Virus record (IMG/VR): IMGVR_UViG_2711768034_000003
Origin: a virus
Taxonomy: Duplodnaviria > Heunggongvirae > Uroviricota > Caudoviricetes
Direction: 5' to 3' (one strand)
Length of the DNA stretch: 37,294 bases
The position numbers were made by a program, and so were the translations under genes. The notes beneath the pieces were generated by a model. The model made no database searches. It was not told the DNA's origin and saw nothing but the letters and a program-made list of their open reading frames with translations. Positions within the stretch are counted from its first letter, which is position 1. The number at the start of each line of letters is the position of its first letter. Positions 1,123 to 37,294 of the stretch are shown piece by piece.

Positions 1123-1148
<26 letters not shown>
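603..1148 (+). CDS. nu1: terminase small subunit Nu1
   Basis: 181-aa ORF MEVNKKQLADIFGASIRTIQNWQEQGMPVLRGGGKGNEVLYDSAAVIKWYAERDAEIENEKLRREVEELRQ... recognised as lambda gpNu1; position directly after cos. Confidence 0.96.
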
Positions 1149-4829
<3,681 letters not shown>

Positions 4830-4849
<20 letters not shown>

Positions 4850-10545: not shown

Positions 10546-10961
10546 GTTTTGCCCTGAAACTGGCGCGAGAGATGGGGCGACCCGACTGGCGTGCCATGCT
10601 TGCCAGGATGTCATCCACGGAGTATGCCGACTGGCACCGCTTTTACAGTACCCATTATTTTCATGATGTTCTGCTGGATATGCACTTTTCCGGGCTGACG
10701 TACACCGTGCTCAGCCTGTTTTTCAGCGATCCGGATATGCATCCGCTGGATTTCAGTCTGCTGAACCGGCGTGAGGCTGACGAAGAGCCTGAAGATGATG
10801 TGCTGATGCAGAAAGCGGCAGGGCTTGCCGGAGGCGTCCGCTTTGGCCCGGAAGGGAATGAAGTTATCCCCGCTTCCCCGGATGTGGCGGACATGACGGA
10901 GGATGACGTAATGCTGATGACAGTATCAGAAGGGATCGCAGGAGGAGTCCGGTATGGCTGA
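10527..10961 (+). CDS. T: T portion of tail assembly chaperone G-T, expressed only as a frameshift fusion with G
   Basis: 144-aa -1-frame ORF abutting the slippery site; ends just after H starts; same layout as lambda G/T. Confidence 0.85.
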   Translation: MFDGELSFALKLAREMGRPDWRAMLARMSSTEYADWHRFYSTHYFHDVLLDMHFSGLTYTVLSLFFSDPDMHPLDFSLLNRREADEEPEDDVLMQKAAGLAGGVRFGPEGNEVIPASPDVADMTEDDVMLMTVSEGIAGGVRYG

Positions 10962-18900: not shown

Positions 18901-19397
18901 ATGCGAACGCCGGGACGCTCAACAACGTCACGATTAATGAAAACTGTCGGGTTCTGGGAAAACTGTCTGCGAACCAGATTGAAGGCGATCTCGTTAAAAC
19001 AGTGGGCAAAGCTTTCCCCCGGGACTCCCGTGCACCGGAGCGGTGGCCATCAGGGACCATTACCGTCAGGGTTTATGACGATCAGCCGTTTGACCGGCAG
19101 ATTGTTATTCCCGCGGTGGCGTTTCGTGGCGCTAAACATGAGCGGGAGAATAACGATATTTATTCGTCATGCCGCCTGATAGTGAAGAAAAACGGTGCTG
19201 AAATTTATAACCGTACCGCGCTGGATAATACGCTGGTTTATACAGGTGTTATTGATATGCCTGCCGGTCGCGGTCACATGACGCTGGAGTTTTCGGTATC
19301 AGCGTGGCTGGTAAATGACTGGTATCCCACAGCCAGTATCAGTGATTTGCTGGTTGTGGTGATGAAGAAATCCACAGCAGGTATCACGATTAGCTGA
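15918..19397 (+). CDS. J: tail tip attachment / central tail fibre protein gpJ (host specificity)
   Basis: 1159-aa [78 protein letters not shown]...; lambda J-like along its length, but about 27 aa longer than the 1132 aa I recall for lambda J. Confidence 0.93.
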
Positions 19398-20119: not shown

Positions 20120-20129
20120 TGGGGTGAAT

Positions 20130-23100: not shown

Positions 23101-23882
23101 TGAAAAACCACAGAACCAGTTCACAAGTGCTGATAAGTGGCGATACTGGATCTATTAAGCTACAAAATGGTAATGCAAACAAGGAGTTAGCGCTAACCGA
23201 AGATTCAGTTACCTCAAACGCTGACATTATCCTAAAAAATAGTGATGATGGTTCGCGTCTTCTTATAAGAAACTCAAACACTTCGGCGCAGTCGTGGAGT
23301 ATCAGGGCATGGGGTCAAAGCGGAAGGGAAAGCGTTTTTGAAATTGGTAACACCAAGCAATACATGTTTTACGCACAAGAAACGGCATCGGGTGGCAGAA
23401 ATTTTGACTTTAACGGTGATGTTACATGTAAGACACTATACCAAACTTCTGATCAAAGCCTTAAAGACAACATTAAGGTTATAGGTGACGCTACCGAATC
23501 CATCCGTAAAATGAATGGGTACACATACACGTTTAAGGACGACGGCCTGCCTTATGCTGGCGTTATTGCACAAGAAGTAATGGATGCGCTGCCTGAAGCG
23601 ATAGCGTTTACCACTCTTTACGGTAAAGAGCTACAGGGGCCAACAACTGACGGAAACGTGTTACGCGAAGAGATGAAGTGCCTTAGCGTTGACTATGCGG
23701 CGGTGACTGGTTTACTTGTTCAGGTCGCCCGTGAAACAGATGATCGCGTTACCGCGCTGGAAGAGGAAAACACAACGCTACGTGAAAATCTGGCAACAGC
23801 AGACACCCGGATCAGCACTCTGGAAAATCAGGTAAGCGAACTGGTTGCACTTGTCCGGCAGTTAACAGGAAGCGAACATTGA
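20130..23882 (+). CDS. stf: side tail fibre protein (Stf): lambda-like N-terminal anchor and Ala/Ser-rich repeat region fused to a non-lambda distal module with a C-terminal intramolecular chaperone (peptidase S74-like) domain
   Basis: N-terminus MAVKISGVLKDGAGKPVQNCTIQLKAKRNSTTV... and the A/S-rich repeats (about aa 130-330) match lambda Stf. From about nt 21120 the sequence diverges. C-terminus ...LYQTSDQSLKDNIKVIGDATESIRKMNGYTYTFKDDG... followed by a coiled-coil tail resembles the autocleaving chaperone domain of endosialidase/T5 L-shaped fibre type fibres. Confidence 0.85.
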   Translation: MAVKISGVLKDGAGKPVQNCTIQLKAKRNSTTVVANTVASENPDEAGRYSMDVEYGQYSVILLVEGFPPSHAGTITVYEDSQPGTLNDFLGAMTEDDVRPEALRRFELMVEEVARNASAVAQNTAAAKKSASDAGTSAREAATRATDAAGSARAASTSAGQAASSAQSASSSAGTASTKATEASKSAAAAESSKSAAATSAGAAKTSEMNAAASQKSAATSASTATTKASEAATSARDASASKVAAKSSETSAASSAGSAASSATAAGNSAKAAKTSETNADNSAQAAADSQTASANSATAAKKSETNAKNSEAAAKVSETNAKASENKAKEYLDKVGGLVSPMTQYDWPVVTGNESFYIKIAKLSDPGSGNCHVTLMVTNAGNYGSPYGNIDFIEISARGLPSLLSADNVSRHLSIRRLGSTGLTDNNQMRYGLVKGDGFIEVWAFQRAFINGAKVAVLAQTARTELYIPDGFVKQTAAPSGYVESPVVRIYDQVNKPSKADLGLSNAMLIGAFGLGGSGVGLDNKMTDQELLQELRAKGGCFWRSGKGTGSTATFFSHGSGIFSRCSDTWAALNIDYDSGRVKVYAGNDRRLDDGTFNINELYGTRHKPSKSDVGLGNVTNDAQVKKSGDVMSGDLTINKDTPSLFLRATGETGAAAVRFYTGTNQERGIIYAGPNTDSLGEVRIRAKNAKGVSGGDLIVRHDGVVEVQNLTAAKKVKSVNAELANTSTNTLENTLKISGQQHTPLLLTRTGYSENLSIGFKVDNLDQKYLGINGSGDLAFGKNTDHKQNSRVITQAILDSGVTVGGKTTFSDLATFNAGIAGSIKPEELDQKTIDLNDLTIKGENKGSVKYYQCRTSGGGANITNKPNGVSGNFLLRVESLRNNTDVDYINVQTLVSGDKGRMYVRFVTNGNFTAWSEPVVSGWNQDVTVRSLTSTTPSKLGGGRIDVLGSTSDYDSMNCTVRGVDSSGTNSAWSVGTSVDTGKTLYLKNHRTSSQVLISGDTGSIKLQNGNANKELALTEDSVTSNADIILKNSDDGSRLLIRNSNTSAQSWSIRAWGQSGRESVFEIGNTKQYMFYAQETASGGRNFDFNGDVTCKTLYQTSDQSLKDNIKVIGDATESIRKMNGYTYTFKDDGLPYAGVIAQEVMDALPEAIAFTTLYGKELQGPTTDGNVLREEMKCLSVDYAAVTGLLVQVARETDDRVTALEEENTTLRENLATADTRISTLENQVSELVALVRQLTGSEH

Positions 23883-25008: not shown

Positions 25009-25590
25009 CTTTATCAATGACTTATCTCCCGACTTCCCGCCTTGCTTTTCCTAAACAGAACAATCGTAGAATATTCTTGAAGGGTTAGATCGTCACTGTT
25101 TTCTGTTCGATACTGTGACATTCAGCACTTGATTCGCTATGGATCTGACAGGAAGGTTTCGAGCGAAAATCTGCAGTTATTCAGTCGTTTTCTTATCGGT
25201 CACCATTATTCTTTTAGACATTGATCCTACAAAGCTGCCGCAAAGTTGGTGGTGGGAACTGAAGTTGCGTAGAGAAGGGGTCAATATCCGGAGGCAAACA
25301 TGGGCTGGCAAAAGTGTAGCGGTATTAGGCGCAGCTATTTAGCCTAGTTATGTTTTATGAAAACTTGATATCATATAAGTGTCTTACTTATTGGCTGTAA
25401 ATAAGTCCTTCCTAAGGAATTGTTTCTTGAGTATCATTTGTAACTGTAACGGAATTTATAATCCTTTGCTTTATTGTTACGGTATTTTTTATCACACCCT
25501 ATTTTTAGTGGTTTTTTATACTGAAGTTTGGCAAAGTGAACTTTATATACATATACTTCATCCTGGTTTCAGTTAAATTGGGTGGATGAT

Positions 25591-26334
25591 ATGGCAACTA
25601 CATGTTCAGTTATATTGATTTTGGAGTCCTTTGATGTTTATTTCGGAAAAGAGAGTGTGTTTCTGGAGAGAGGTTCATCTGTACTTGTCGACTCTAGCTC
25701 TAGAGATTTTTTCCTGACATATCCTGAAAGAGTGATAGTGGCGGATTTTGGCGCTGAGTTTATTAGTCGCTATTTGAAAGCTAATAACTTAAGGGATATT
25801 TCTGATTGTAGGGAATATCCATCTTATTTAAAAATAAACTTTGCTGACTTCAGTTTAATTAAAGGATTAATTAGTTGGGCTAATCACTGTGCTGAATACA
25901 TAGAAATTTTTGATGAGTCTATTGCTTTTACATGTCTCTCTGCATTTTCTTCTGAAAAACAATTTGGAGTATTTCTGTTTGGATGTTTGAAAAGCACAGG
26001 GGCTAAAGTTAAAACGATTATTCATACGGATTTATCTGCACCATGGCGTCTTAAGGATATATCATCAAGATTATATCTCAGCGAAAGTTTACTAAAGAGG
26101 AAATTGAAAGAAGAGGGGGTATCATTCAGTAAGATCATACTTGATGAGAGGATGCAAATGGCTGAATATTTACTCAGCACTCGTTGTTATCCTATTAGTA
26201 AAGTAGCTAAGGTCTGTGGTTATGCCAGTGTCTCATACTTTACTTATGTATTTAGACGTTATTTTGGTGTTTCTCCAAGTCAATACTCTCAGAGGAGTTC
26301 AGAAAGTAAAATTCTTACTCACCAGGGAATCTGA
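25591..26334 (+). CDS. AraC/XylS-family transcriptional regulator (Rns/AggR-like size and layout)
   Basis: ATG at 25591 with GGTGGA SD-like sequence upstream. C-terminal dual HTH ...LYLSESLLKRKLKEEGVSFSKIILDERMQMAEYLL...ISKVAKVCGYASVSYFTYVFRRYFGVSPSQY typical of AraC family; AT-rich codon usage. Confidence 0.8.
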   Translation: MATTCSVILILESFDVYFGKESVFLERGSSVLVDSSSRDFFLTYPERVIVADFGAEFISRYLKANNLRDISDCREYPSYLKINFADFSLIKGLISWANHCAEYIEIFDESIAFTCLSAFSSEKQFGVFLFGCLKSTGAKVKTIIHTDLSAPWRLKDISSRLYLSESLLKRKLKEEGVSFSKIILDERMQMAEYLLSTRCYPISKVAKVCGYASVSYFTYVFRRYFGVSPSQYSQRSSESKILTHQGI

Positions 26335-26337
26335 TCA

Positions 26338-26810
26338 TTGTTCTTGCCCCCTTATTTCCAGACAGGGGGTGTATCTTAAGTTAACGTTACCCGCTGACGT
26401 CGATATTCTCGCGGAGAGCGATAACCCAACGCACTGTGCGGATGGTTTTCATTGTAATGTTCGATCGCCACTGCAAGATTATGCAATGCCGTTCTTACAT
26501 TCGGTTTCGGCATGAACGCGATGTAGTCTTCCTTCATCGTTTTCACGAACCTTTCTGCAATTCCATTACTCTGAGGACTGCTGATTGCCGTTGTGCAGGG
26601 CTCCAGATTCAACTCTCTGGCGAACTGCCGTGTTTCATGCGCTCTATACGCTGAACCGTTATCTGTCAGCCACTGGATGGACTGTTCCGGTACTTTATCG
26701 CCAAAGCGTTTTTCTATCGCTCCTAACATGACATCCTGCACTGTCGCTTTATCGTAACCGCCCGTGCTTGCGGCCCAGTCTATGGCTTCACGATCGCAAC
26801 AGTCCAGGGC
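26338..26810 (-). mobile_element. truncated IS2-group (IS3-family) insertion sequence: terminal end plus 3' part of the transposase gene
   Basis: End sequence TTGCCCCCTTATTTCCAGACA resembles the IS2 terminus. The reverse-strand ORF encodes ...[14 protein letters not shown]...[10 protein letters not shown]...[12 protein letters not shown], the C-terminal DDE integrase core of IS3-family OrfB. Homology stops near 26805-26810. Confidence 0.75.
26376..26804 (-). pseudogene. IS3-family transposase OrfB, C-terminal about 140 codons only (5' truncated)
   Basis: In-frame homology to IS2 InsD extends upstream of the first Met (…[28 protein letters not shown]…) to a stop; no N-terminal half and no OrfA. 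Confidence 0.7.
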
Positions 26811-27088: not shown

Positions 27089-27134
27089 ATTCGTAATGCG
27101 AAGGTCGTAGGTTCGACTCCTATTATCGGCACCA
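27089..27134 (+). other. 3' fragment of a tRNA-Thr(CGU) gene (anticodon loop to CCA); att-like core, not a complete tRNA
   Basis: ATTCGTAATGCGAAGGTCGTAGGTTCGACTCCTATTATCGGCACCA matches the 3' part of enterobacterial thrW-type tRNA-Thr; the 5' acceptor strand GCCGATA is absent upstream. Confidence 0.8.
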
Positions 27135-27411
27135 TCTTTTCTCGTAAAATCATTAAGTTGCTATTGCAGTGTTTTGCGTTGTTCAACACTAATGTACATT
27201 TTTGCGCGTTATGAGTGTGGCAAAATTGTGGCAGACACAGTGAGATTGTTTGTGGATCAATGCAAGAGTATGCTAACAGCATGTTTACCTTGCAGCTCCC
27301 CCTTGTCTTTGAGCAATACACTACTTGATGGCTGCTGGTTACGAACGTTGTCAGAGATTGCTATCACAAGGGGATGGCGCTGAGAATTCATCCTAAATGA
27401 TTGAGGCCAGC

Positions 27412-28461
27412 ATGGAAAAGGAATTACAGCTCAAAGCTGATGAACAAATAAAAGCATACTCCAAAAAAATAGATTTTTACACCTCAGAATATACTGTAGA
27501 AATACTTGCACAAAAAGTAAGAGCTGGCGAATATACAGTCCCTGCATATCAACGTGAGTATACTTGGGATGAACCAAGAAAATGTAAATTTATTGAGTCG
27601 CTAATCATAGGTCTTCCTATTCCATTCGTATTTTTCTGGATGAATGACGATACCGGAAAACTAGAAATTGTTGATGGTTCGCAGCGGCTTAGAACCATTG
27701 AAGAATATTTTAATAATCGTTTAACCCTTGATGGGCTAGAGCGTTTGGATCTTCTTAATGGTACAAGATTTGAAGATTTACCATTAGCACGCCAAAGAAA
27801 AATTTTAAATAAATCTATCCGGGGAATAATACTATCCGAAGATACAGATATGGAAGCAAGGGTTGATTTATTTGAAAGGATAAATACAGGCAGTAAAGTT
27901 GCTAATCCTGCTGAGGTTAGACGCGGTGTTTTACGTGGTCCATTTATGGATTTAATCAATGAATTGGCTGCTAATCAACTGTTTATTAAACTAGCGCCTG
28001 TTTCTGCAAAGCAAAAAAAAGAACGAGAGCCAGAAGAACTAGTAACTAGATTTTTTGCATACTCCGATGGTCTTGACGGATATAGAGATGATGTATCAGC
28101 ATTTATATTTAGATATATAAAGCGAATGAATGAGTTGTTCGAGGAGGATGCAGCTCTGGCTCAACAATATAGAGATCGCTTTTCTCGAATGTTAGCATTC
28201 GTAGAACAAAGTTTCCGTCTCGGATTTAAGAAAACAGTAAAAGGTACAACGACACCACGTGCTCGTTTCGAGTCCATTGCGATAGGCTCGCATTTAGCAT
28301 TAGAAATTAATGGTTCGCTCCAAGTAACTAAGGAACAAACTGACGAAATATTAGAAAGCGATTCCTTTAAAGCTGAAATTCGATCTGATGGCGCTAACGC
28401 AATAAGAAGATTGCAGGGAAGAATTGGTTATATTAGAGATGCTCTTTTAGAGAGGGCTTGA
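27412..28461 (+). CDS. DUF262 / ParB-like nuclease-domain protein (GmrS-like N-terminal domain family)
   Basis: ATG at 27412 with GAGG SD 6 nt upstream (track ORF starts 15 nt earlier). Signature YTVPAYQREYTWDE...LEIVDGSQRLRTIEEYF characteristic of DUF262. Confidence 0.8.
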   Translation: MEKELQLKADEQIKAYSKKIDFYTSEYTVEILAQKVRAGEYTVPAYQREYTWDEPRKCKFIESLIIGLPIPFVFFWMNDDTGKLEIVDGSQRLRTIEEYFNNRLTLDGLERLDLLNGTRFEDLPLARQRKILNKSIRGIILSEDTDMEARVDLFERINTGSKVANPAEVRRGVLRGPFMDLINELAANQLFIKLAPVSAKQKKEREPEELVTRFFAYSDGLDGYRDDVSAFIFRYIKRMNELFEEDAALAQQYRDRFSRMLAFVEQSFRLGFKKTVKGTTTPRARFESIAIGSHLALEINGSLQVTKEQTDEILESDSFKAEIRSDGANAIRRLQGRIGYIRDALLERA

Positions 28462-28463
28462 TC

Positions 28464-29189
28464 ATGCAACTAGTAAAAGATGTTTTTGATGAAAGAGTTG
28501 CTGATATCGAGAGCTATTTTGAATTGGTGAATAATGTTGAGCTTGCAATTGGCTCTGGAGGAGCGATATTCAGTGTTAATGGGACGCAATACCAAATAAA
28601 TCCTGATCAGCAGAAGATAATGTATTCTGGAATATATCTACATTTGTATAATTTGGTCGAATCGACGATCTCTATGTTAATAGATGCTGTCGAACGGCAT
28701 GCGGCGCAAGGAATTAATGGACAACTGGTTCTACTAACTGAAAACATGAAGAAGCTGTATGTTAAATCTGTAGCAGCTCCTTTTGAATCAATAAATAATG
28801 ATTTACGGTTAGAGAAGGCGTTAGAACTATTTGACCAAGTATTAAATATAAAGCCTCTTGAACTTAGGATCCCGCCGGGAGGCGGAGGTAATTGGGACTT
28901 AAAAGAAATAGAGAGGATAAGTAAGAGTATAGGTGTTGATGTCACTCTTCCCAGAGCGCTTAGGGCAAAGGTAAATGCTCCATTTAGAGACGATAAAGGA
29001 CCTATTCGGCTAGTTAAAGAAATAAGAAACAAATTAGCTCATGGTTCTCTTTCATTTACACAATGTGGTACGAACCATGTAGCCAGTGATTTTAGGCGGT
29101 TGATTGATATAGTCAAAGAATACTTAGCCCATATAATCCGATCTTATGAAAACTTCATAACCGCACAAGGTTATAAGATTGCACAATGA
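28464..29189 (+). CDS. HEPN-like domain protein (R-x4-H motif), translationally coupled to the DUF262 gene
   Basis: ATG at 28464, 2 nt after the DUF262 stop, with AGAGGG SD inside the upstream gene; C-terminal EIRNKLAHGSLSF fits the HEPN Rx4-6H motif; 241 aa. Confidence 0.65.
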   Translation: MQLVKDVFDERVADIESYFELVNNVELAIGSGGAIFSVNGTQYQINPDQQKIMYSGIYLHLYNLVESTISMLIDAVERHAAQGINGQLVLLTENMKKLYVKSVAAPFESINNDLRLEKALELFDQVLNIKPLELRIPPGGGGNWDLKEIERISKSIGVDVTLPRALRAKVNAPFRDDKGPIRLVKEIRNKLAHGSLSFTQCGTNHVASDFRRLIDIVKEYLAHIIRSYENFITAQGYKIAQ

Positions 29190-29192
29190 TAT

Positions 29193-30257
29193 TTATTTGG
29201 CCAAGGACGTAATTATACTTTGGCCAATAATCTCTCCTAACTTGACCGGAACTGCATTTCCGATCATTTTAGCTAATGTAGCTACGCTTAGCGGGTTTTC
29301 GTCATCATGAAACTTATAAGCTAAAGGAAATGATTGTAGTAATGCAGCCTCCCTTAGACTGATCGCTCGATCTTGCACAGGATGCCCAAATCTACCATTC
29401 CCATAACCATTACATTGAGTAGTAATTGTTGGTGATGGCTCATCCCATGTCATCCGTCCATAAACACTTGGATAAGTTTTTCCTGTCATTTTCTTATGGC
29501 AGCTAGCCCTTAGTTCTTCCGGCCAATCCAGCCAAGAACCGCCAGGTTTTGAATATTGAATCCGCTTTAAGTTTATAGGGCTTAGAATTGACGAGCGATG
29601 TATAGGATCAACCTTATCCTTTTCGCCTGCTGTTATGCGAGGAAGATGCTCAATCGCATCTCTTACAGTGACATATTTATCTGCAGTATGCGTAGCTGGT
29701 ATTATTGATATCTCGCTAACTTTTGATGCGATTAATACTAATCTTTTTCGCGTTTGAGGGATTCCATAATCAGGACAAAATACGATTTTATAATCAAATG
29801 AATAACCGTTATGCCGAAGAGTTGCTAAAAACGCATTAAATACTCCCTGTTCTGCCAAGCCAGGAACATTTTCCATTGTAACGAAATCAGGAGTGATCTC
29901 ATTGATCAGGCGCCCAAAGCTTTCCAGAAGGTTCCATCGTTTGTCAGGAGAAGTAGTTCGTTTTATATTTGCTCTGGAATATGTTGAGAAGGGTTGGCAA
30001 GGTGCACATCCAGCAAGGAGGGTGTAATCGCCGCCAGCCAGATACTTTGCTACATCATTTCCTGAAAGATGAGTTACATCTTGTTTTATAAATCTGGCGT
30101 TGTTATTGATTTCATACGCATAACGACAAGATTCCTCGATATCATATCCGGCGGTCACGGATATGCCTGAACGCTGGAGACCATGCGTTAGCCCCCCGGC
30201 TCCACAAAAAAGATCCACTGCCTTAATTTTTGTATGATTTTTCAACGTAAACCTCAC
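29193..30257 (-). CDS. DNA (cytosine-5)-methyltransferase
   Basis: Motif I DLFCGAGG, motif IV GCAPCQPFS (PCQ), ENV, QTRKR, and GNAVPV all present in canonical order. Start is GTG at 30257 or, more likely, TTG at 30245 preceded by a GAGG SD. Convergent with the HEPN gene, 3 nt apart. Confidence 0.9.
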   Translation of the reverse strand: MRFTLKNHTKIKAVDLFCGAGGLTHGLQRSGISVTAGYDIEESCRYAYEINNNARFIKQDVTHLSGNDVAKYLAGGDYTLLAGCAPCQPFSTYSRANIKRTTSPDKRWNLLESFGRLINEITPDFVTMENVPGLAEQGVFNAFLATLRHNGYSFDYKIVFCPDYGIPQTRKRLVLIASKVSEISIIPATHTADKYVTVRDAIEHLPRITAGEKDKVDPIHRSSILSPINLKRIQYSKPGGSWLDWPEELRASCHKKMTGKTYPSVYGRMTWDEPSPTITTQCNGYGNGRFGHPVQDRAISLREAALLQSFPLAYKFHDDENPLSVATLAKMIGNAVPVKLGEIIGQSIITSLAK

Positions 30258-30600
30258 TACTTAGACGTGGCGAATTATAGCAAAATTTACAATGAACATC
30301 GAGGGATTTTATTTCCTTTGAAATCATGTATATAGTTATTTTTTAAGTTAATACTCAACAGTTAGATGCTGAGATACTCTTTCCTGCCAGACAATCAAAC
30401 ATAGTTCCACCTAGTTTTCCTGCAAGGACTTTGAATCTGTTCACCGCCTGCAAAATTAGGTCGAAAGAATGTTACAACAACAACATACACAGGCAATCAA
30501 ACACGCTTAGTCGTCCATTAGTATTTCCGGCTGATTAGATGTAAGATCTTAAGGTCTAATGTAGGCTGTTCCATTCAGGCCAGAGTGGCAAAATAAAAAG

Positions 30601-30630
30601 GCCCGATCTTACCAGTCGGGCTTCTTTATA
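30601..30630 (-). terminator. rho-independent terminator (reads best on the minus strand, downstream of the HigA-like gene)
   Basis: GCCCGAtcttaccagtCGGGC; on the minus strand the hairpin is followed by CTTTTTTATTTT. Confidence 0.6.
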
Positions 30631-30821
30631 TCGGCTTTTAATGTCGCCTGTACCACTGCTAAAATGACTTACCTAGTCATGGCAGGTTCCCATCATCAAG
30701 GATCGGATTTTTTAATCCTCAGTCGTCCGAGTATATTATCGCTTTAATAAGTCGTTAGAAATGTATGAGTATTATTCAAAGCAAATTATGTATTAGGACT
30801 AAGTAATCTAATTGAATAATC

Positions 30822-31079
30822 TTACTTTTGTTTATTAAACCATGCCTCATGTAGCTCTTGCAGTTTCACCCAAAAAGATGCATCTGTATTGAAAATTATC
30901 GAGAGTTGAATAGCTTCTTCAAGAGTTATATTTCGCTCATTTTTAATTATTTCCCAAATTTTTTCATATGATGTATCCATCAGTTCAGCAAGTCTTGCGG
31001 GAGGCATATCCAATGGTTTCAAGAATTCTTCGTATAAAATCTCTCCGACAGTTGAAGGTGCAGCATTTATTGTCCTCAT
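30822..31079 (-). CDS. HigA-family antitoxin-like XRE HTH protein (orphan; no adjacent toxin ORF)
   Basis: 85-aa ORF with ...TVGEILYEEFLKPLDMPPARLAELMDTSYEKIWEIIKNERNITLEEAIQLSIIFNTDASFWVKLQ... matching the HigA/VapI addiction-module antidote pattern; strong SD AAGGGGGGG upstream of the ATG at 31079. Confidence 0.7.
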   Translation of the reverse strand: MRTINAAPSTVGEILYEEFLKPLDMPPARLAELMDTSYEKIWEIIKNERNITLEEAIQLSIIFNTDASFWVKLQELHEAWFNKQK

Positions 31080-31122
31080 ACCCCCCCTTTTTTTTAAACG
31101 TCATCGGATTCCTTACAGTAAT

Positions 31123-31138
31123 TTGTTTAGCTAAACAA
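31123..31138. repeat. 16-bp perfect palindrome TTGTTTAGCTAAACAA (candidate operator)
   Basis: Self-complementary; related palindromes GGTTAGCTAACC (31234-31245) and GTTTAGCTAAAC (31312-31323) share the TTAGCTAA core. Confidence 0.6.
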
Positions 31139-31411
31139 ATCAGAGAGTAAGGTTAGTTGAAGTGTTTTTCTTACTCAAATTCGATATATCCGTTGTCAGA
31201 AATGAATCATTTACAAACAGTGTTTCTTATAAAGGTTAGCTAACCAAATTTATAAGTCATCTACAATCCCCTGTTATTTACATTTTGTTTCATTTTATTT
31301 ATTGCTATTTAGTTTAGCTAAACAATCTATTTTATCATGTATAATCTGTGTATTTATCCACAGATTCTGTTAATAATATTGTGTATAACTTGTTTGCTTA
31401 TTTTTTATTAT

Positions 31412-31477
31412 ATGACATATGAGGTGCGCCTTTATGACATATGAGGTACGCTTTCATGACATTTGAGGTACGGATAT
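31412..31477 (+). repeat. three tandem 22-bp direct repeats (iteron-like): ATGACATATGAGGTGCGCCTTT / ATGACATATGAGGTACGCTTTC / ATGACATTTGAGGTACGGATAT
   Basis: Read directly from the sequence; contiguous, no spacers, in an AT-rich non-coding stretch. Confidence 0.8.
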
Positions 31478-31722
31478 AATTTAAAATTGTCATATTAAAC
31501 AAGTGAATATATCGCTTTTCCACACCTCTCTAACCTGATCTTTAACCTTTTATATAACCAAAAAGATTAAAGGAATTATTAAAACCTTAGTGTCATTCAG
31601 AAATCGGTCAATAAAACCAATTTCATATGGAGTAAGAATCCGATGAATAAAAACCCTGTTGACATTATTATTTTTGCCAGTAAGTTTTAATTATTCTCAA
31701 TTCATAACGTTGGTTAGCAAAC

Positions 31723-31750
31723 TTTAGCGGCTAAAATTTTAGCCGCTAAA
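31723..31750. promoter_or_regulatory. 28-bp perfect palindrome TTTAGCGGCTAAAATTTTAGCCGCTAAA (candidate operator) just upstream of the HTH/AT-hook gene
   Basis: Perfect dyad symmetry; ends 22 nt before the ATG at 31773; shares the TTAGC/GCTAA half-site with the upstream palindromes. Confidence 0.65.
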
Positions 31751-31772
31751 ATCCTCAAATTTCTACTGAGAG

Positions 31773-32066
31773 ATGGGTTCTTCGATGAAATCAGTTATGC
31801 CAGAACTTATAACCGTTGAAGAGTTGGCTTTTGCATTAAAGAAAACTGTAAAAAGTATCCGCAGTGATGCAACGCGAAATCCAAAATGTCTTCCACCAAG
31901 ATGCCGTCTTCCCGGTAATAAACGTCTTCTCTGGCGTAGAGAAGATGTTAAGGACTGGATAGATAAATCTGTTGAGTCAAAGACAGAAAATGACGATATA
32001 GCGAAAGAGATAAATAGGTTTCAAAGGAAACGTGGCAGGCCGCCAAAACCCAAGCCGCGAGAATAA
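31773..32066 (+). CDS. small DNA-binding protein, excisionase/AlpA-like HTH with C-terminal AT-hook (RGRPPKPKP)
   Basis: 97-aa ORF; ...ELITVEELAFALKKTVKSIRSDATRN... and ...RLLWRREDVKDWI... resemble MerR/excisionase-type HTH; basic tail FQRKRGRPPKPKPRE is an AT-hook-like motif. Confidence 0.55.
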   Translation: MGSSMKSVMPELITVEELAFALKKTVKSIRSDATRNPKCLPPRCRLPGNKRLLWRREDVKDWIDKSVESKTENDDIAKEINRFQRKRGRPPKPKPRE

Positions 32067-32169
32067 AAATATTTCTTAGGGTCATTCAAATAATTTCCCT
32101 TCCAATAAACACATATGCTGCACATTTTTACACTACTAATCCTGCACAAATGCTTTAGGAAAACACACT

Positions 32170-32336
32170 GAGTACACAGGAATACACAATACGTACACAG
32201 ATTCACAACGGCAAATGTAGGGCAGGATATGTAAAGTAGGCCCACCGTAAACGGTGCTTCTACTTTACCTTCCCTTATTCGCAGCTGAGCTGCTCAACGG
32301 AGTCCTGCTCTGCGAGGCTGATCGGCTACCGCCTGT
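32170..32336 (+). promoter_or_regulatory. candidate origin of transfer (oriT) / MobC operator region: TACACAG repeats and nested inverted repeats
   Basis: gagTACACAGgaaTACACAatacgTACACAG (about 32172-32210); nested IR GTAAAGTAGgcCCACCGtaaaCGGTGcttCTACTTTAC (about 32228-32266); then GCAGCtgaGCTGC and ...GAGTCCTGCTCT... immediately upstream of the MobC-like gene. Confidence 0.4.
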
Positions 32337-32348
32337 ATGGAGAATGAT

Positions 32349-32702
32349 ATGACCGTTTCTCAGACTAGAAAAAATAGTACACCAATTAAAGTTTATTGTT
32401 TGCCAGATGAAAAAGCGCAAATCCAGGAAAATGCTGAAGCATCTGGCTTAAGTGTAGCGAGTTTCATTCGTAAAGTAGCAATGGGTTATCAGGTTGAATC
32501 TATGGTAGATATTGAACAGGTTGTAGAGCTTAGCCGAGTAAATGCTGATCTTGGTCGACTTGGTGGGTTACTTAAACTGTGGTTAGCTGACGATCCACGC
32601 ACAGTTGATTTTTCACCCTCATTGATAAAAACGTTGCTTGCTAAAATAGAATCAACCAGACAAGAACTAAGAAATATTATGGATAGAATCTTGGATAAAT
32701 AA
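32349..32702 (+). CDS. MobC-like ribbon-helix-helix relaxosome accessory protein
   Basis: ATG at 32349 with GGAG SD. N-terminal RHH-like IKVYCLPDEKAQIQENAEASGLSVASFIRKVAMGY and central VELSRVNADLGRLGGLLKLWL resembling the MobC family motif. Confidence 0.55.
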   Translation: MTVSQTRKNSTPIKVYCLPDEKAQIQENAEASGLSVASFIRKVAMGYQVESMVDIEQVVELSRVNADLGRLGGLLKLWLADDPRTVDFSPSLIKTLLAKIESTRQELRNIMDRILDK

Positions 32703-32783
32703 ATTTATGGTTTCCTAAATATCTGTATTTGTTAAAAGTACGAGTTTTCAATATTAATAATCAATTAAATTTGAGGTGGGCAA

Positions 32784-33578
32784 ATGAAGTTAATGCTCCG
32801 AGTATTTTCATCACTGAGAGGGATTTTAGCAGCTAAAAAATCATTAGCAGCTTCCTTCCTGGCGTCCATCATGGCATTACCGGCGACAGCCGGTATCCCT
32901 GTAATTGATGGTACTAATGTGGTGCAGACCACAATCAGCGCAGTCAACAACGTTCAGGCTGTGGCAAAACAGATCCAGCAGTACCAGACGCAGCTGCAGC
33001 AGTATGAAAACATGCTCAAAAATACAGTCGCACCTGCAGCCTATATCTGGGATCAGGCCAATTCGACCATCAACAAATTGTTGCAGGCGCAGGACACCCT
33101 TAATTACTACAAAAACCAGGCCGGGAGTCTTGATTCATATCTGAAACGTTATCAGGACGTGAATTACTACCGCTCATCACCATGCTTTAACAGTAATGTT
33201 GAATGTACTGCGGATGAAATTAGCGCACTGCGCAAAGCTGAACAGAACAGCTCTGAGGCACGTAAAAAGGCCAATGACGCTGTATTTAAGGCTCTTGACG
33301 AACAGCAGGAAACACTGCAAAGCGATGCTGACAACCTTGCAGATTTGCAAACGCAGGCAACCGGCGCACAAGGGCAAATGGAAGCTATTCAGGCCGCTAA
33401 CCAGCTTGCCAGTGCTCAAACGAACCAGTTGCTGCAAATCCGCTCGCTTCTGGTATCCCAGCAAAACGCTGCAGCAACACTGGCACAGGCTGAGGCTGAT
33501 AAAGAAGCCCAACAAATAGTCGCTGATGAAAAAGCGTTAGCTGGCGAGAACACACTAAGCCCGAAGCGAATTTGGTGA
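32784..33578 (+). CDS. trbJ: P-type conjugative transfer protein TrbJ (VirB5-like)
   Basis: 264-aa ORF with signal peptide; ...PATAGIPVIDGTNVVQTTISAVNNVQAVAKQIQQYQTQLQQYENMLKN... matches the TrbJ N-terminal signature; coiled-coil Q-rich body; GAGGTGG SD upstream. Confidence 0.75.
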   Translation: MKLMLRVFSSLRGILAAKKSLAASFLASIMALPATAGIPVIDGTNVVQTTISAVNNVQAVAKQIQQYQTQLQQYENMLKNTVAPAAYIWDQANSTINKLLQAQDTLNYYKNQAGSLDSYLKRYQDVNYYRSSPCFNSNVECTADEISALRKAEQNSSEARKKANDAVFKALDEQQETLQSDADNLADLQTQATGAQGQMEAIQAANQLASAQTNQLLQIRSLLVSQQNAAATLAQAEADKEAQQIVADEKALAGENTLSPKRIW

Positions 33579-33589
33579 GGGAGAGCTGA

Positions 33590-33763
33590 ATGAAAGATAA
33601 ACTTTTGGTCATTTTTATTCTAATAATTTCATTAATTCTATGCTCTTGCGATAAAAAAGATGAATATTGTTTATCGACGCCAGAGAATAAATTGAACGAA
33701 CATAACTACGATAAATGTGCCCTGCGTGGCAATAACAATCCTAGCCCTAAGCGAGAATGGTAA
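33590..33763 (+). CDS. small lipoprotein, TrbK-like entry-exclusion candidate (not in the supplied ORF track)
   Basis: ATG at 33590 with GAGGGAG SD; 57 aa MKDKLLVIFILIISLILCSCDKKDEY... with lipobox-like LILC; sits between trbJ and trbL as trbK does in IncP Tra2. Confidence 0.5.
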   Translation: MKDKLLVIFILIISLILCSCDKKDEYCLSTPENKLNEHNYDKCALRGNNNPSPKREW

Positions 33764-35160
33764 TTATGAGAATAGTAAGCAAACTCACTTTTTTAGGAAT
33801 GTTTTTTTTGTTTTCTGTAAATGCTTATGCTGGTCAATTAGATAGTAGCGGATTACTTGATACGTTATTAGATAAGTTTCAGCAAGTAGCCAGCACATGG
33901 TCATTAGTAATTGGTGATTATGCAAATTGGCTCTTCTGGGGGCTGGTATTAATAAGTATGGTTTGGACATTTGGTATGTTGGCGATGCAAGGGGAAGGTT
34001 TAATCAGTGCACTTGCAGAAATAGTTCGTTTTTTTGCCGTGATTGGTTTTTTTTATTATCTTTTAATCAACGGCCCAGCCATATCACAATCTATAATTAA
34101 CTCAATGAGACAACTTGCAGCAAATGCTTTAGGAACAAGTACTGGTATTTCACCCTCCAGCATAGTTGATATGGCTTTTGTGATATTAACAAAGGTCAGT
34201 TCAGCAGCATCAATTTGGTCTCCAATGATTTCGACCATTATGATAACCGTCGCGATAATAGTATTAGTAGTAATGGCGCTTATCGCGATAAATATGCTAA
34301 TAATGTTAGTTTCTGCATGGGTGTTGTGTTATGCAGGAGTTATTTTGCTTGGGTTTGGTGGCTCGAAATGGACTTCTGATATAGCAATAAATTACTTACG
34401 CACAGTATTATCGATTGGTATTCAGTTATTTACGATGACATTAATCATTGGGATTGGGCAATCATTTATAGATCAGTATTTTTCTATTATTAAAAATGAT
34501 ATTCCTGATCTTAATAGTCTTATTGTTTTACTTCTGGCGTCAATTATTCTTTTAGTATTGACGAATAAATTACCGTTGTTGTTATCAGGCGTTGTTGGAG
34601 GAGCGTCCTTACAAGGGATCGGTGGTTTTGGAGCAGGTATGATTACTGGCGCTGCTACTACTGCAATCAGTGGCGCTGGGACAATGGCAATGAGTGCTAC
34701 AGCTCAAGTCAGTGGTGGTGCTTCCGCTCTAAAAGCAGCATTTGAATCTGCACAAGCGGCGATGGCCGAAGAATCTGGTTCTGGTGATAAAGGTGGTTCA
34801 GGTGGAGGATTTGGCGGAGGGGAAGATACCGGTTCCGTAGATACTTCTGGAGGACAACCATCAGGCGGTTCCGGTGGTTCTTCTGCAGGGAGTAATACAG
34901 GTAGCGTTAGCGGAGGAAGCCAGGGGTTTGCTTCATCATTCTCACGAGCTGGCCGCATGGCTTCTCACATGGCGAGCGGGCTGTCTAACGGAGCTTCGGA
35001 GTATCAGATGATGAAGGGAAGTGCTAATTCTATCCGAACACAACAGACTGTTGATGGGGAAATAGCGAATCAAATACGTAAACACACAGCCGATCGTCAG
35101 AGTAACCACGAACAGGATGAGTTTGAGGGTGATAGTTTTACTGGCAGTAAAAAATCTTGA
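33757..35160 (+). CDS. trbL: P-type conjugative transfer protein TrbL (VirB6-like) with Gly/Ser-rich C-terminal tail
   Basis: Multi-pass hydrophobic protein with signal-like N-terminus (MRIVSKLTFLGMFFLFSVNAYAG from the alternative ATG at 33766) and C-terminal GSGGGFGGGEDTGS...SGGSGGSS low-complexity tail typical of TrbL/VirB6. Confidence 0.75.
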   Translation: MVIMRIVSKLTFLGMFFLFSVNAYAGQLDSSGLLDTLLDKFQQVASTWSLVIGDYANWLFWGLVLISMVWTFGMLAMQGEGLISALAEIVRFFAVIGFFYYLLINGPAISQSIINSMRQLAANALGTSTGISPSSIVDMAFVILTKVSSAASIWSPMISTIMITVAIIVLVVMALIAINMLIMLVSAWVLCYAGVILLGFGGSKWTSDIAINYLRTVLSIGIQLFTMTLIIGIGQSFIDQYFSIIKNDIPDLNSLIVLLLASIILLVLTNKLPLLLSGVVGGASLQGIGGFGAGMITGAATTAISGAGTMAMSATAQVSGGASALKAAFESAQAAMAEESGSGDKGGSGGGFGGGEDTGSVDTSGGQPSGGSGGSSAGSNTGSVSGGSQGFASSFSRAGRMASHMASGLSNGASEYQMMKGSANSIRTQQTVDGEIANQIRKHTADRQSNHEQDEFEGDSFTGSKKS

Positions 35161-35167
35161 TTTAGGC

Positions 35168-35199
35168 GCGTCAGTTAGCGCGGTAACGTTAACTGACGC
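35168..35199. repeat. 10-bp perfect inverted repeat GCGTCAGTTA ... TAACTGACGC (12-nt spacer)
   Basis: Read directly; lies between the trbL stop and the next gene's RBS; no T-tract follows. Confidence 0.5.
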
Positions 35200-35229
35200 T
35201 TCCACTAAACACCTGTAAGGAGGTGGATA

Positions 35230-35442
35230 ATGGTTGATTATAATAGCTTAGTTTTGGAAGGGCTAAAAATCCTTTTTTCCGACAAAAATAATGAATTTGT
35301 AAAAAAACTCTATGATCCCTTGATAAATATTCTGTGCATTGAAGACTATTATTTTGCTACCGGGATTTATGATTCAGAAGATGCGTCCAAACAAATTGAA
35401 AAGCTAAAGAAAGCAATAAATGATTATAGGTTTAATTATTAG
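35230..35442 (+). CDS. hypothetical small protein (70 aa)
   Basis: Strong SD TAAGGAGGTG 6 nt upstream of the ATG; no recognisable family. Confidence 0.5.
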   Translation: MVDYNSLVLEGLKILFSDKNNEFVKKLYDPLINILCIEDYYFATGIYDSEDASKQIEKLKKAINDYRFNY

Positions 35443-35446
35443 TAAT

Positions 35447-35486
35447 TAGAAAGAGGCTAACAAAGGTTAGCCTTTCTTTTATTTTG
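35447..35486. terminator. bidirectional rho-independent terminator between convergent genes
   Basis: AGGCTAACaaagGTTAGCCT, an 8-bp perfect stem flanked by an A-run on one side and TTTCTTTTATTTT on the other. Confidence 0.65.
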
Positions 35487-35667
35487 ATTTTCCAGTGTAA
35501 TAGTTAAATACCTCAAGTCTAGCTTCTTCATAAGTCAATTCTCCATTAATGACCTTGCTCTTTATTAGTTCATAGTATGGTAACCCTCGCGGATCTTTGT
35601 TTGATAAATATAAACTCGCCTCCGCTTTCTTGAAAGCTTTAGTACGCTTATCATATATTGGATTCAT
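35479..35667 (-). CDS. hypothetical small protein (62 aa), co-transcribed downstream of the 439-aa gene
   Basis: Starts 4 nt after the stop of the upstream reverse-strand gene; basic, helical; no recognisable family (a VbhA/FicA-type inhibitory motif was looked for and not found). Confidence 0.45.
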   Translation of the reverse strand: MNPIYDKRTKAFKKAEASLYLSNKDPRGLPYYELIKSKVINGELTYEEARLEVFNYYTGKSK

Positions 35668-35671
35668 TTAT

Positions 35672-36991
35672 TCAAAACTCATTATCGTGTTTTTTTTCAT
35701 TAACTGTACTACTGATTTCTTGAGGTTCGTAATCATCTTCTTCATGATAGTCTTTCACAGAACTCCCAATCTCTTCAATTTCTGCTTCTCCTATAGCAAA
35801 CTTGCCTAGTATGATTTTACTTTTATTTGTAAAGGAGACATCAATTTCTTCACCGCAATAAGGCTTGTCTTCATGAGTGGTTCCTGAAAGGATGCACTCG
35901 AACTTGACTTTAAACGATTCATCAGTGAGTTCGCTGTCTATAATTTGCAGGTTTTCTACATAGTCAAAGTAAGCGTTAGTTTCTGCTATGCTACCACTTA
36001 CTTCATCACAATGAATCAAGTCGTACATACCATTTTCCTCAAGATTGTCACGTATTTTTTCACTGACCTCATCTTTTGTAAGGATTTTTATATTGAGATC
36101 CTCTTCGAATATATTCTGTAAATGTTCAAATAAAGTGTAGCTGTCAATATCTTCATCAATATTTTCGTCTTCGATTATTGATTTAATATCCGCTATTAAA
36201 CTTTCTGAGTAAATTATATAATCAATCGCCTCTAAAGAATCTGTGTTGAAATTTTCATCTTCGAGTAATTTTGTAAAAGATGTGTATCCAAAAACACTAG
36301 CGATTACTGCGCCTAAACCCGAAAGCGAGATTTTAATTGAATCAGCAGTAAGTATTAAGTCAAGTTTATTAATTAAATAGAAGGCTGAGGAAAGTTGTGA
36401 TATTTTCTTTTTTTCCTCGATTTGATATTTCAGTTTGTCATAGCTCATTTTTTCTCTCTCTCTGCTCATAGCCTCTCGTGAGAGTTTGATTTCTGTTGCT
36501 TGTTTTTCTTTGATAGAAGTCTCCAGTTCAATTTTCATTTTCTCAGATTTTTCGTACATCGCTTTAATAATTACTGAGGATGCTTTAGAGCGTTCCTTTA
36601 TATCTTCAGTTAGTGTTTTTTGTTGTTCGATTCTTTCATTGCTAAATGCTATTTCTTCGATGATTTCTTGAGCTGCAATTTCACTCTCATGCTCAGCCTT
36701 ATATTTTGAGTTAATAAGCCTTGCTCTTTCTTTCTCTTTTTTTACTTTTTGATTAATGCTAGAACAATATCTTATGTGTTCTATCTCACCTTGAATTAAC
36801 CCAGTAAGATAATTTACTAAGGGTAATAAAAATAAATATGCTAGCATCAGAAATGCTATCAATAAATATTCTGAAGTGGTAATCCCAGTTAAGAATGATT
36901 TAAATTGAGTGACTCTGGAGTCGATTGTTCCAGTTCCCCAAAATAGCAATGTGAATTTATCCCAGTATAAAATTACAAATATAGCACTCAA
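35672..36991 (-). CDS. hypothetical membrane-anchored coiled-coil protein with acidic C-terminal domain; 5' end abuts an IS1 terminus (possibly truncated)
   Basis: 439-aa ORF; hydrophobic N-terminal segments, long K/E-rich coiled coil, D/E-rich C-terminus. The only in-frame start before the IS1 inverted repeat is a TTG at 36989-36991; the next ATG is codon 49 (36845-36847) without an SD. Confidence 0.5.
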   Translation of the reverse strand: MSAIFVILYWDKFTLLFWGTGTIDSRVTQFKSFLTGITTSEYLLIAFLMLAYLFLLPLVNYLTGLIQGEIEHIRYCSSINQKVKKEKERARLINSKYKAEHESEIAAQEIIEEIAFSNERIEQQKTLTEDIKERSKASSVIIKAMYEKSEKMKIELETSIKEKQATEIKLSREAMSREREKMSYDKLKYQIEEKKKISQLSSAFYLINKLDLILTADSIKISLSGLGAVIASVFGYTSFTKLLEDENFNTDSLEAIDYIIYSESLIADIKSIIEDENIDEDIDSYTLFEHLQNIFEEDLNIKILTKDEVSEKIRDNLEENGMYDLIHCDEVSGSIAETNAYFDYVENLQIIDSELTDESFKVKFECILSGTTHEDKPYCGEEIDVSFTNKSKIILGKFAIGEAEIEEIGSSVKDYHEEDDYEPQEISSTVNEKKHDNEF

Positions 36992-36997
36992 TGTGCC

Positions 36998-37294
36998 GGT
37001 AATGACTCCAACTTATTGATAGTGTTTTATGTTCAGATAATGCCCGATGACTTTGTCATGCAGCTCCACCGATTTTGAGAACGACAGCGACTTCCGTCCC
37101 AGCCGTGCCAGGTGCTGCCTCAGATTCAGGTTATGCCGCTCAATTCGCTGCGTATATCGCTTGCTGATTACGTGCAGCTTTCCCTTCAGGCGGGATTCAT
37201 ACAGCGGCCAGCCATCCGTCATCCATATCACCACGTCAAAGGGTGACAGCAGGCTCATAAGACGCCCCAGCGTCGCCATAGTGCGCTCACCGAA
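36998..37294 (-). mobile_element. IS1 (partial; continues beyond the right window edge), with terminal inverted repeat at 36998-37020
   Basis: GGTAATGACTCCAACTTATTGAT is the IS1 terminal inverted repeat; downstream sequence encodes the InsB C-terminus. Confidence 0.9.
37013..37294 (-). CDS. insB: IS1 transposase InsB, C-terminal part (5' end beyond window)
   Basis: ...[93 protein letters not shown] is the InsB C-terminus. Confidence 0.9.

Follow-up and report, generated by a model that had tools for sequence, protein, structure and literature searches.

The locus and its truncation by IS1

We consider here the end of a 37,294-bp stretch of DNA (IMG/VR record IMGVR_UViG_2711768034_000003, called the window throughout), where a large gene for an uncharacterised membrane protein runs directly into one end of the insertion sequence (IS) IS1. 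The window is a whole draft contig (CXWS01000049.1, assembly GCA_001268745.1) that ends 297 bp inside IS1. Reading inward from the contig end, the right end of IS1 (positions 36998 to 37294, minus strand) consists of the inverted repeat, GGTAATGACTCC..., which starts at 36998, and the 3' end of insB (37013 to 37279, minus strand; stop codon at 37013-37015). The stretch is identified by the match of its called gene to PF03400 (DDE_Tnp_IS1), by the insB stop and by thousands of IS1 copies that match it at 97-99% identity. The inverted repeat abuts the large gene exactly at 36997/36998, and the other end of IS1, hence also the expected target-site duplication of about 9 bp, lies beyond the contig. 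Since the window is the entire contig and ends in IS1, this cap coincides with an assembly break in a repeat whose far side is unreadable.

The large gene (35672 to 36997, minus strand) has as its longest open reading frame (ORF) one of 439 amino acids (35672 to 36991), which starts with a TTG at 36989-36991. It is followed, 4 nt downstream on the same strand, by an ORF for a basic protein of 62 residues (35479 to 35667; net charge +4; match to phrog_22101 at 3e-21). A third ORF of 70 codons (35230 to 35442, plus strand; phrog_26407), with AGGAGG upstream, converges on these two and stands outside their minus-strand unit. A hairpin resembling a bidirectional intrinsic terminator (35452 to 35475, both strands) is common to the convergent units; it is detected by a consensus scan, which finds 6 terminator-like sites in the region where 0.9 are expected, and the IS-free allele has it too. 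On the evidence of an ORF scan and of the raw sequence, the coordinates given in a preliminary description of this DNA hold for the three ORFs, the 4-nt gap, the shared terminator and the IS1 end at 36998.

The intact form of the large gene can be read from alleles that are free of IS1. The window region is present in 17 of 5,426 complete E. coli genomes at 99.1-99.9% identity, and all 17 matches end at window position 36997, the last base ahead of the IS1 inverted repeat. IS-free alleles are carried by 17 complete E. coli chromosomes and one Enterobacter, and they extend 72 nt (24 codons) past the junction to an ATG (MQFLKDLISSMYKHIDTRINSPILGT...). The homology search for such alleles thereby recovers a native gene of 465 codons with an upstream ATG (intact allele WP_044803904.1), of which, by alignment, the window retains codons 25 to 465 and the stop. 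The native ATG lies 17 nt downstream of the stop of a gene for a 357-aa tyrosine integrase (int), and the native side that is lost from the window, the missing 72 nt together with int, reads ...AGATTGGACTATTTATTC. Across the junction the native reading ...TTA GGC ACA TTG... corresponds to L24, G25, T26 and L27, with IS1 between codons 24 and 25. The native N-terminus of the 465-aa protein has a conserved start, MQFLKDLISS, and relatives in Enterobacter, Serratia, Aeromonas and Buttiauxella match in both start and length. The TTG at 36989-36991 is the codon of Leu27 in the native gene; full-length homologues therefore do not start at this TTG, as they would if nothing had been cut away. The preliminary description had offered two alternatives for this gene, and the first, that IS1 cut off its N-terminus and promoter, proves right.

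The retained part of the gene is very well preserved. None of the 441 residues of the retained codons differs from the intact allele (that of locus L001), and the 2 nucleotide differences in 1898 nt are both synonymous. Because the remaining 441 codons show no amino-acid change, the insertion of IS1 is recent.

A concern is whether the junction is an assembly artefact at the contig end, the gene being whole in the real genome. In favour of this, the draft contig that makes up the window ends in a multicopy IS, and the same IS1 junction has no instance in the 5,426 complete E. coli genomes, in metagenome contigs or in viral contigs, which is to say in no other sequence searched. The break, however, coincides exactly with the outermost base of the IS1 inverted repeat, which is what a true transposition junction predicts, 297 bp of IS1 are assembled onto it, and short-read contigs usually end inside an inserted IS. 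We consider an artefact very improbable.

The second alternative was that transcription of the gene now depends on read-out from IS1. The orientation of insB, which matches that of the truncated gene, makes such read-out geometrically possible; the insB stop lies 21 nt upstream of the TTG, and the only terminator-like site between them is a weak 5-bp hairpin. The ORF is moreover unbroken and identical to the full-length allele, and a functional product could be imagined to arise from insAB read-through or a hybrid promoter, with translation from the TTG or a later start. Several observations argue the other way. The only sequence resembling a Shine-Dalgarno site, GGAG, is 14 nt upstream of the TTG, and the promoter-like sites found in a consensus scan (8, against 6.4 expected) do not rise above chance. 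Residues 1 to 26 would be missing from the product, and the lost N-terminal segment holds the first predicted helix together with P22 and G25, which are conserved in at least 90% of the 43 full-length members whose alignment is used for all statements on conservation. The identity to the intact allele is equally expected after a recent insertion. Of the read-out idea, then, the orientation of insB stands, but the distant GGAG and the loss of the conserved N-terminus tell against it, and we regard a still functional gene as unlikely. IS1 after codon 24 severs the gene from int and from any upstream promoter or ribosome-binding site, with loss of a conserved N-terminal helix. Because of the distant GGAG, the chance level of promoter-like sites and the loss of the first helix and the P22/G25 region, the window copy is probably a pseudogene, or at best weakly expressed via insAB read-through.

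The encoded protein and its family

We turn to the protein itself, using the native residue numbers. Its segments, all on the minus strand, are the remnant of an N-terminal membrane module (residues 25-95; positions 36785 to 36997), a coiled-coil stalk rich in lysine and glutamate (residues 96-242; 36344 to 36784), an acidic C-terminal globular domain (residues 243-440; 35750 to 36343) and a disordered acidic tail (residues 441-465; 35675 to 35749). The membrane module is recognised by hydropathy, counts of lysine and arginine, conserved residues and a weak match to phrog_4780. It contains a strongly hydrophobic stretch at residues 62-93, with a strong transmembrane (TM) helix at about 66-93, and a weakly hydrophobic first helix at residues 27-45 that bears a conserved N-W-D motif. 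The coiled coil, about 150 residues long, has 23 lysines and 24 glutamates. The C-terminal domain, of net charge -33, is predicted to have a helical subdomain followed by a four-stranded NTF2/cystatin-like sheet, and the tail (net charge -7) has a predicted local distance difference test score (pLDDT) below 50 in the full-length model. This composition matches the hydrophobic N-terminus, K/E-rich coiled coil and acidic C-terminus that the preliminary description gave for the 439-aa ORF. Six lysines and arginines stand just after the strong TM helix versus two before it; because of these six residues, the positive-inside rule would place both the stalk and the acidic head in the cytoplasm, behind what we infer to be a two-helix N-terminal membrane anchor.

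The family to which this protein belongs is unnamed. No match to Pfam, NCBIfam or PADLOC (PADLOC-DB v2.0.0) is found for the large protein. When the large protein, ten of its distant relatives and the small ORFs are scanned with Pfam, NCBIfam, PADLOC and PHROGs, the only interpretable matches are PHROGs of unknown function, and two of the relatives discussed below (P0020 and P0029) are likewise unmatched in PADLOC-DB v2.0.0. Word-indexed searches of 5.8 billion clusters yield about a dozen clusters, every one named 'hypothetical protein', and a word-indexed search with the 43-sequence profile gains no named relative. An exhaustive profile search of 1.84 billion representatives gives 425 clusters when the threshold is E<1e-3, of which 37 also pass E<1e-30; many of the 425 are full-length (425-470 aa), and others match just the N-terminal part or just the C-terminal domain. 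In the 43 members W36, G45, R52 and P83 are invariant, and P22, G25, FGY260-262, D271, F274, G396 and G422 nearly so. No Pfam family is matched consistently by these members. Profile sequence searches of the solved structures with the large protein and with the 62-aa protein find nothing meaningful, a tblastn search of plasmids and phages shows the family to be almost absent there, and a literature search for the accession of the large protein returns nothing.

The partial relatives are of two kinds. The N-terminal module and the coiled coil weakly match phrog_4780, and a member of that group, a 256-aa accessory protein of the filamentous Vibrio phage (inovirus) vB_VipaK (MT188664.1; L026 6007-6777), resembles the family in its N-terminal module and its coiled coil (phrog_4780, E 3e-66) but has a different, short C-terminus. 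The C-terminal domain also exists in stand-alone versions (231-251 aa); those of 231-233 aa, with neither membrane anchor nor coiled coil, occur in Nevskia, Solimonas and other Pseudomonadota, and such proteins are mainly what a locus scan with a closer alignment returned. Their genes (L014 5938-9282; L015 5902-7663; L016 4365-7134) are directly upstream of a Ser/Thr protein kinase and a tetratricopeptide repeat (TPR) protein, or beside an AbiEi_2-type regulator and a helix-turn-helix protein.

The intact allele does carry a product name in RefSeq, 'phage tail tape measure protein', which the annotation pipeline PGAP uses in 12 genomes. The long helical stretch of the protein and the lambdoid prophage that adjoins the island could be seen as agreeing with this name. 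Yet the protein matches no tape-measure family in Pfam, NCBIfam or PHROGs, its gene lies between int and trbL of the island and outside any tail module, and the same gene is named 'hypothetical protein' in five other genomes. A genuine 853-aa tape measure gene (10954-13515) is present in the neighbouring prophage itself, and the RefSeq name is therefore a mis-annotation; as an identity of the large protein it is effectively refuted, and we give it next to no weight.

The island and the small downstream gene

A genomic island of about 10-11 kb, integrated at the thrW tRNA-Thr site, contains this region at its integrase-proximal end. Window positions 27089 to 36997 are collinear at 99.9% with the island of strain PS_131_S11, which starts inside the tRNA-Thr gene thrW. 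The gene order is DUF262/GmrSD_N, HEPN_MAE_28990, cytosine methyltransferase, an orphan higA, traJ, trbJ, a 57-aa ORF, trbL and the 70-aa ORF, and the opposite strand of the intact island reads int, the 465-codon gene, the 62-codon gene and the terminator. With its traJ, trbJ and trbL the island looks like the remnant of a conjugative element. The 70-aa ORF closes the traJ-trbJ-trbL unit as an island backbone gene and follows trbL in every island variant, including one (L011) that has no cargo slot. Diverged forms of the island are present in some 90 other E. coli genomes. In two inspected variants (L009 and L010) the slot between int and the small ORF is occupied by an unrelated membrane protein of 295-296 aa with multiple TM segments (minus strand, L009 5576-6466 and L010 5573-6460; phrog_26661, no Pfam domain); profile comparison (hhalign) of the large-protein family with this 296-aa slot protein gives a probability of 0.1%. 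In the third variant, L011, the slot is deleted, and a BCCT transporter gene stands where slot and int would be. The integrase-adjacent slot is thus variable and holds the 465-aa gene, the unrelated 296-aa gene or a deletion.

This variability bears on the 62-aa ORF. The preliminary description had suggested that the large protein and its small neighbour could be a toxin/immunity or abortive-infection pair, and a toxin-antitoxin pair in which a VbhA-like small protein neutralises the large one is a related possibility. A gap of 4 nt separates the two genes, which share a strand, and sibling islands keep the small gene together with a large membrane protein; the sibling small proteins there are labelled 'antitoxin VbhA family' by PGAP. 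The partner, however, is not constant. In L009 and L010 a 72-75-aa homologue, 56-58% identical to the 62-aa protein of the window, stands behind the 296-aa gene, so that the small gene is combined with two unrelated large proteins. Between island variants the small ORF and the 70-aa ORF diverge in parallel (57-61% and 60-64% identity, respectively), and by this measure both behave as backbone genes. A tblastn search with the small protein finds it confined to thrW-type islands, with no copy beside those relatives that the large protein has in Serratia, Aeromonas, Buttiauxella and Vibrio, in the metagenomic loci or in the loci linked to restriction-modification (R-M) genes, and a word-indexed search with the 62-aa protein returns near-identical copies only. 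The co-inheritance expected of a type II toxin-antitoxin pair is therefore absent, the small gene being restricted to this island type. Because the small ORF follows an unrelated 296-aa protein and is missing beside the other relatives, the toxin/immunity pair is not supported.

The VbhA label leads to the same place. VbhA is the class I antitoxin of the Fic toxin VbhT; its inhibition motif is SxxxE, whose Glu24 blocks the Fic active site (PMC3667792), and class I Fic antitoxin genes are described as immediately upstream of the toxin gene (PMC3667792). The 62-aa protein resembles VbhA in being small and helical and in having a Ser-x-x-x-X stretch at residues 18-22, near the position of VbhA Glu24, followed by a G-E-L-T-x-E-E-A helix. 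The stretch reads S18-L-Y-L-S22 in the window and S-L-F-L-S in the siblings, so that all three homologues have SxxxS, with serine in place of the inhibitory glutamate. The window protein is unmatched by the Pfam VbhA model (PF18495) at E<=1, and a sibling reaches E 0.18 with 12.2 bits, where the gathering cut-off is 25.9; VbhA is likewise not retrieved when solved structures are searched with a profile of the small protein. No Fic gene adjoins it, the upstream 465-aa and 296-aa proteins having neither a Fic nor any other Pfam domain, and the small gene is downstream of its putative partner where the antitoxin gene would be upstream. We therefore find the VbhA name poorly supported, since PF18495 is not reached, SxxxE is absent and there is no adjacent Fic toxin gene, and we rate a functional pair of any of these kinds as a slight chance.

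For completeness we describe the rest of the island and its surroundings. The defence-like trio at the thrW-proximal end consists of DUF262/GmrSD_N (27397-28461), HEPN_MAE_28990 (28458-29189, which shares 4 nt with the gene before it) and, convergent with these, a cytosine-5 DNA methyltransferase (Dcm, 29193-30257, minus strand). A full-length traJ-II RNA motif (32220-32319, plus strand; Rfam RF01760, 93 bits where the gathering score is 40) is directly upstream of the traJ/NikA-like gene of the island. In every IS-free island RefSeq places a 112-nt 'tRNA-Ser' 25 nt from the start of int (L001 9087-9198, also in L002, L009 and L010), for which neither ARAGORN nor Rfam (E<=1) finds a tRNA; it may be a degenerate tRNA-like remnant of an attachment site or an annotation artefact. 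Window positions 1 to 24817 are the late region of the lambdoid prophage, with genes for the large terminase (1123-3048), the portal (3248-4849), the tape measure protein given above, the central fibre J (15918-19397) and a 1252-aa side tail fibre (20124-23882). Between the tail-fibre genes and the island are an AraC-type regulator (25582-26334) and an rve_3 integrase-core transposase fragment (26376-26741, minus strand). Homology to the IS-free island starts at 27089, within the 3' part of thrW, and the prophage and island therefore appear to be in tandem at one attachment site.

Genomic contexts of relatives

Since no family name is at hand, we examine the neighbourhoods of the relatives. 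In other bacteria the large gene occurs alone, without the small partner. Three close lineages lie beside no type I R-M, GmrSD-like, reverse transcriptase or CBASS genes: the close relatives are solitary insertions, in Serratia beside proA and in Aeromonas between attH and a hydrolase gene, and the Buttiauxella relative is next to an Hcp-Tlde1 islet and a PIN/ribbon-helix-helix (RHH) pair. The distant relatives present another picture. All six distant lineages with usable flanks, which form a neighbourhood sample and not a genome-wide enrichment statistic, adjoin defence genes, and in five these are type I R-M genes. The commonest arrangement has the family member as the final gene of such an operon, directly behind hsdR or overlapping it. 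One relative (P0016) is the last gene of an hsdM-hsdM-hsdS-hsdR-X operon, in which its start overlaps the hsdR stop by 4 nt (ATGA), an arrangement that suggests translational coupling to the restriction subunit; in the corresponding loci (L035-L037 5110-9398) the first hsdM is labelled hsdM(FRG). Further relatives follow hsdR at a distance of 25 nt (P0029, on three contigs) or 50 nt (P0013), and another (P0012) adjoins hsdM. On a Vibrio aerogenes plasmid hsdR-hsdM-hsdS is followed by DUF262, then a GmrSD-like gene and then the relative. Extra defence genes embedded in type I R-M clusters are documented, e.g., TgvAB in the VPI-2 cluster of V. cholerae (PMC11411939). The sixth lineage (P0020) has the gene 85 nt after a UG17-like reverse transcriptase (RT) and beside a CBASS cyclase with a Cap15 effector. 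UG17 RTs are reported to associate strongly with SLATT proteins with two TM helices (2TM) (bioRxiv 10.1101/2021.12.02.470933), and P0020 occupies the position behind the RT where a 2TM SLATT protein is usual.

Possible function and significance

Combining the architecture with these contexts, we explore what the intact protein could do. It would be a self-contained, membrane-anchored accessory defence protein, most plausibly a membrane-acting abortive-infection effector, or else a tether at the membrane that cooperates with restriction complexes or guards them, and the E. coli copy would be swappable cargo in the slot next to the island integrase. The DUF262/GmrSD_N, HEPN_MAE_28990 and Dcm genes of the island itself provide a supporting context. 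In this respect the earlier suggestion of a defence or abortive-infection role fares better than the pair to which it was attached: it gains for the large protein, through the contexts of its distant relatives, and finds no support for the combination with the 62-aa ORF.

A number of points weigh against this proposal, in addition to the size of the neighbourhood sample. The defence role is drawn from gene neighbourhoods only, in the closest relatives (Serratia, Aeromonas) none of the neighbours is recognisable as a defence gene, and no type I R-M gene adjoins the large protein in the E. coli island. The topology is deduced from charge counts. At the junction, a contig ending in IS1 fits a simple insertion, an IS1-mediated deletion or, less likely, a mis-join.

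Taken together, the best explanation of the window gene is that it is an IS1-inactivated copy of an uncharacterised, probably defence-related membrane effector, an explanation we hold with moderate confidence. Its structural and evolutionary part we hold with high confidence, and a defence function of the intact family we see as a real possibility, though somewhat short of even. A more specific proposal, which we put forward only tentatively, would make the 465-aa protein the founder of a new family: anti-phage effectors of the abortive-infection type, membrane-anchored and encoded by one gene each, that act in functional coupling with type I restriction enzymes. The coupling might consist in tethering HsdR complexes to the membrane at sites of DNA entry; alternatively, the protein might guard these complexes and collapse the membrane once phage anti-restriction proteins disable them. 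The version in the E. coli island would then be a free-standing, integrase-linked cargo.

In practical terms, the window ORF should be annotated as an IS1-disrupted pseudogene, the result of an ordinary event in which IS1 recently entered a cargo gene, here at the end of a contig. What looks like an operon of two genes is not a functional pair. Of broader interest is the unnamed family, with membrane anchor, coiled coil and acidic head, whose members repeatedly stand last in type I R-M operons or lie in other defence clusters. It is a plausible new phage-defence gene family, uncharacterised so far, and from its gene contexts an R-M-linked candidate. If it is a true defence gene, a membrane-acting partner would be added to the classical restriction systems, and the island would be a further example of integrase-adjacent cargo slots that exchange defence genes.

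Comparison with known systems

We begin the comparison with the island. It is like the GIsul2-type islands in being a small island with an integrase, trbL and a HigA-type antitoxin gene (GIsul2 carries trbL; PMC9376610), a likeness drawn from gene content. It differs from GIsul2 in its site, which is thrW and not guaA, and in lacking ISCR2-sul2.

The conjugative genes of the island suggest one more candidate for the protein, namely a conjugation or type IV secretion system (T4SS) accessory of an integrative and conjugative element (ICE) remnant, as a bitopic inner-membrane component like VirB8, TraM or DotI. The C-terminal sheet does give matches to the NTF2-like domains of VirB8, TraM of R64, DotI and the Tim44 C-terminal domain, but they are low-scoring and generic, with 4-9% sequence identity. 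VirB8-like components have a short cytoplasmic tail, one TM helix, a periplasmic NTF2-like domain and a place in a T4SS cluster, a set of features that the protein does not share; it has a predicted cytoplasmic orientation and no conserved T4SS linkage. We set the VirB8-like identity aside, and a conjugation accessory in general appears improbable.

The proposed membrane effector has counterparts among the SLATT/2TM pore-forming effectors of CBASS, RADAR and UG17 RT systems. At its N-terminus the protein has, as these do, two predicted hydrophobic helices; it is also highly mobile, and its defence contexts are varied, with one relative (P0020) directly downstream of a UG17-like RT. Membership of SLATT is rejected at the level of the Pfam models, which match none of the 43 members at E<=1. 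The first helix differs in being weakly hydrophobic with an N-W-D motif, and the large protein also carries a coiled coil (about 150 residues) and a globular domain (about 200 residues).

The second group of counterparts is linked to restriction. PrrC, from the EcoprrI type Ic cluster, and RloC are R-M-linked abortive-infection genes; TgvAB and the HEC genes are defence genes found within R-M or Hma clusters. As with PrrC/RloC, TgvAB and the HEC genes, members of the present family are accessory genes inside a type I R-M operon or at its end, and the V. aerogenes relative comes directly after a TgvAB-like DUF262 pair. Unlike them, the large protein has no ABC-ATPase, anticodon-nuclease, DUF262 or HNH domain; it is predicted to be membrane-anchored with a coiled coil, and its E. 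coli copy is not beside R-M genes. PADLOC includes HEC models and none of them is matched. The large protein may be regarded as a loose analogue of both the PrrC-type R-M-linked genes and the SLATT-type 2TM effectors, while belonging to neither family.

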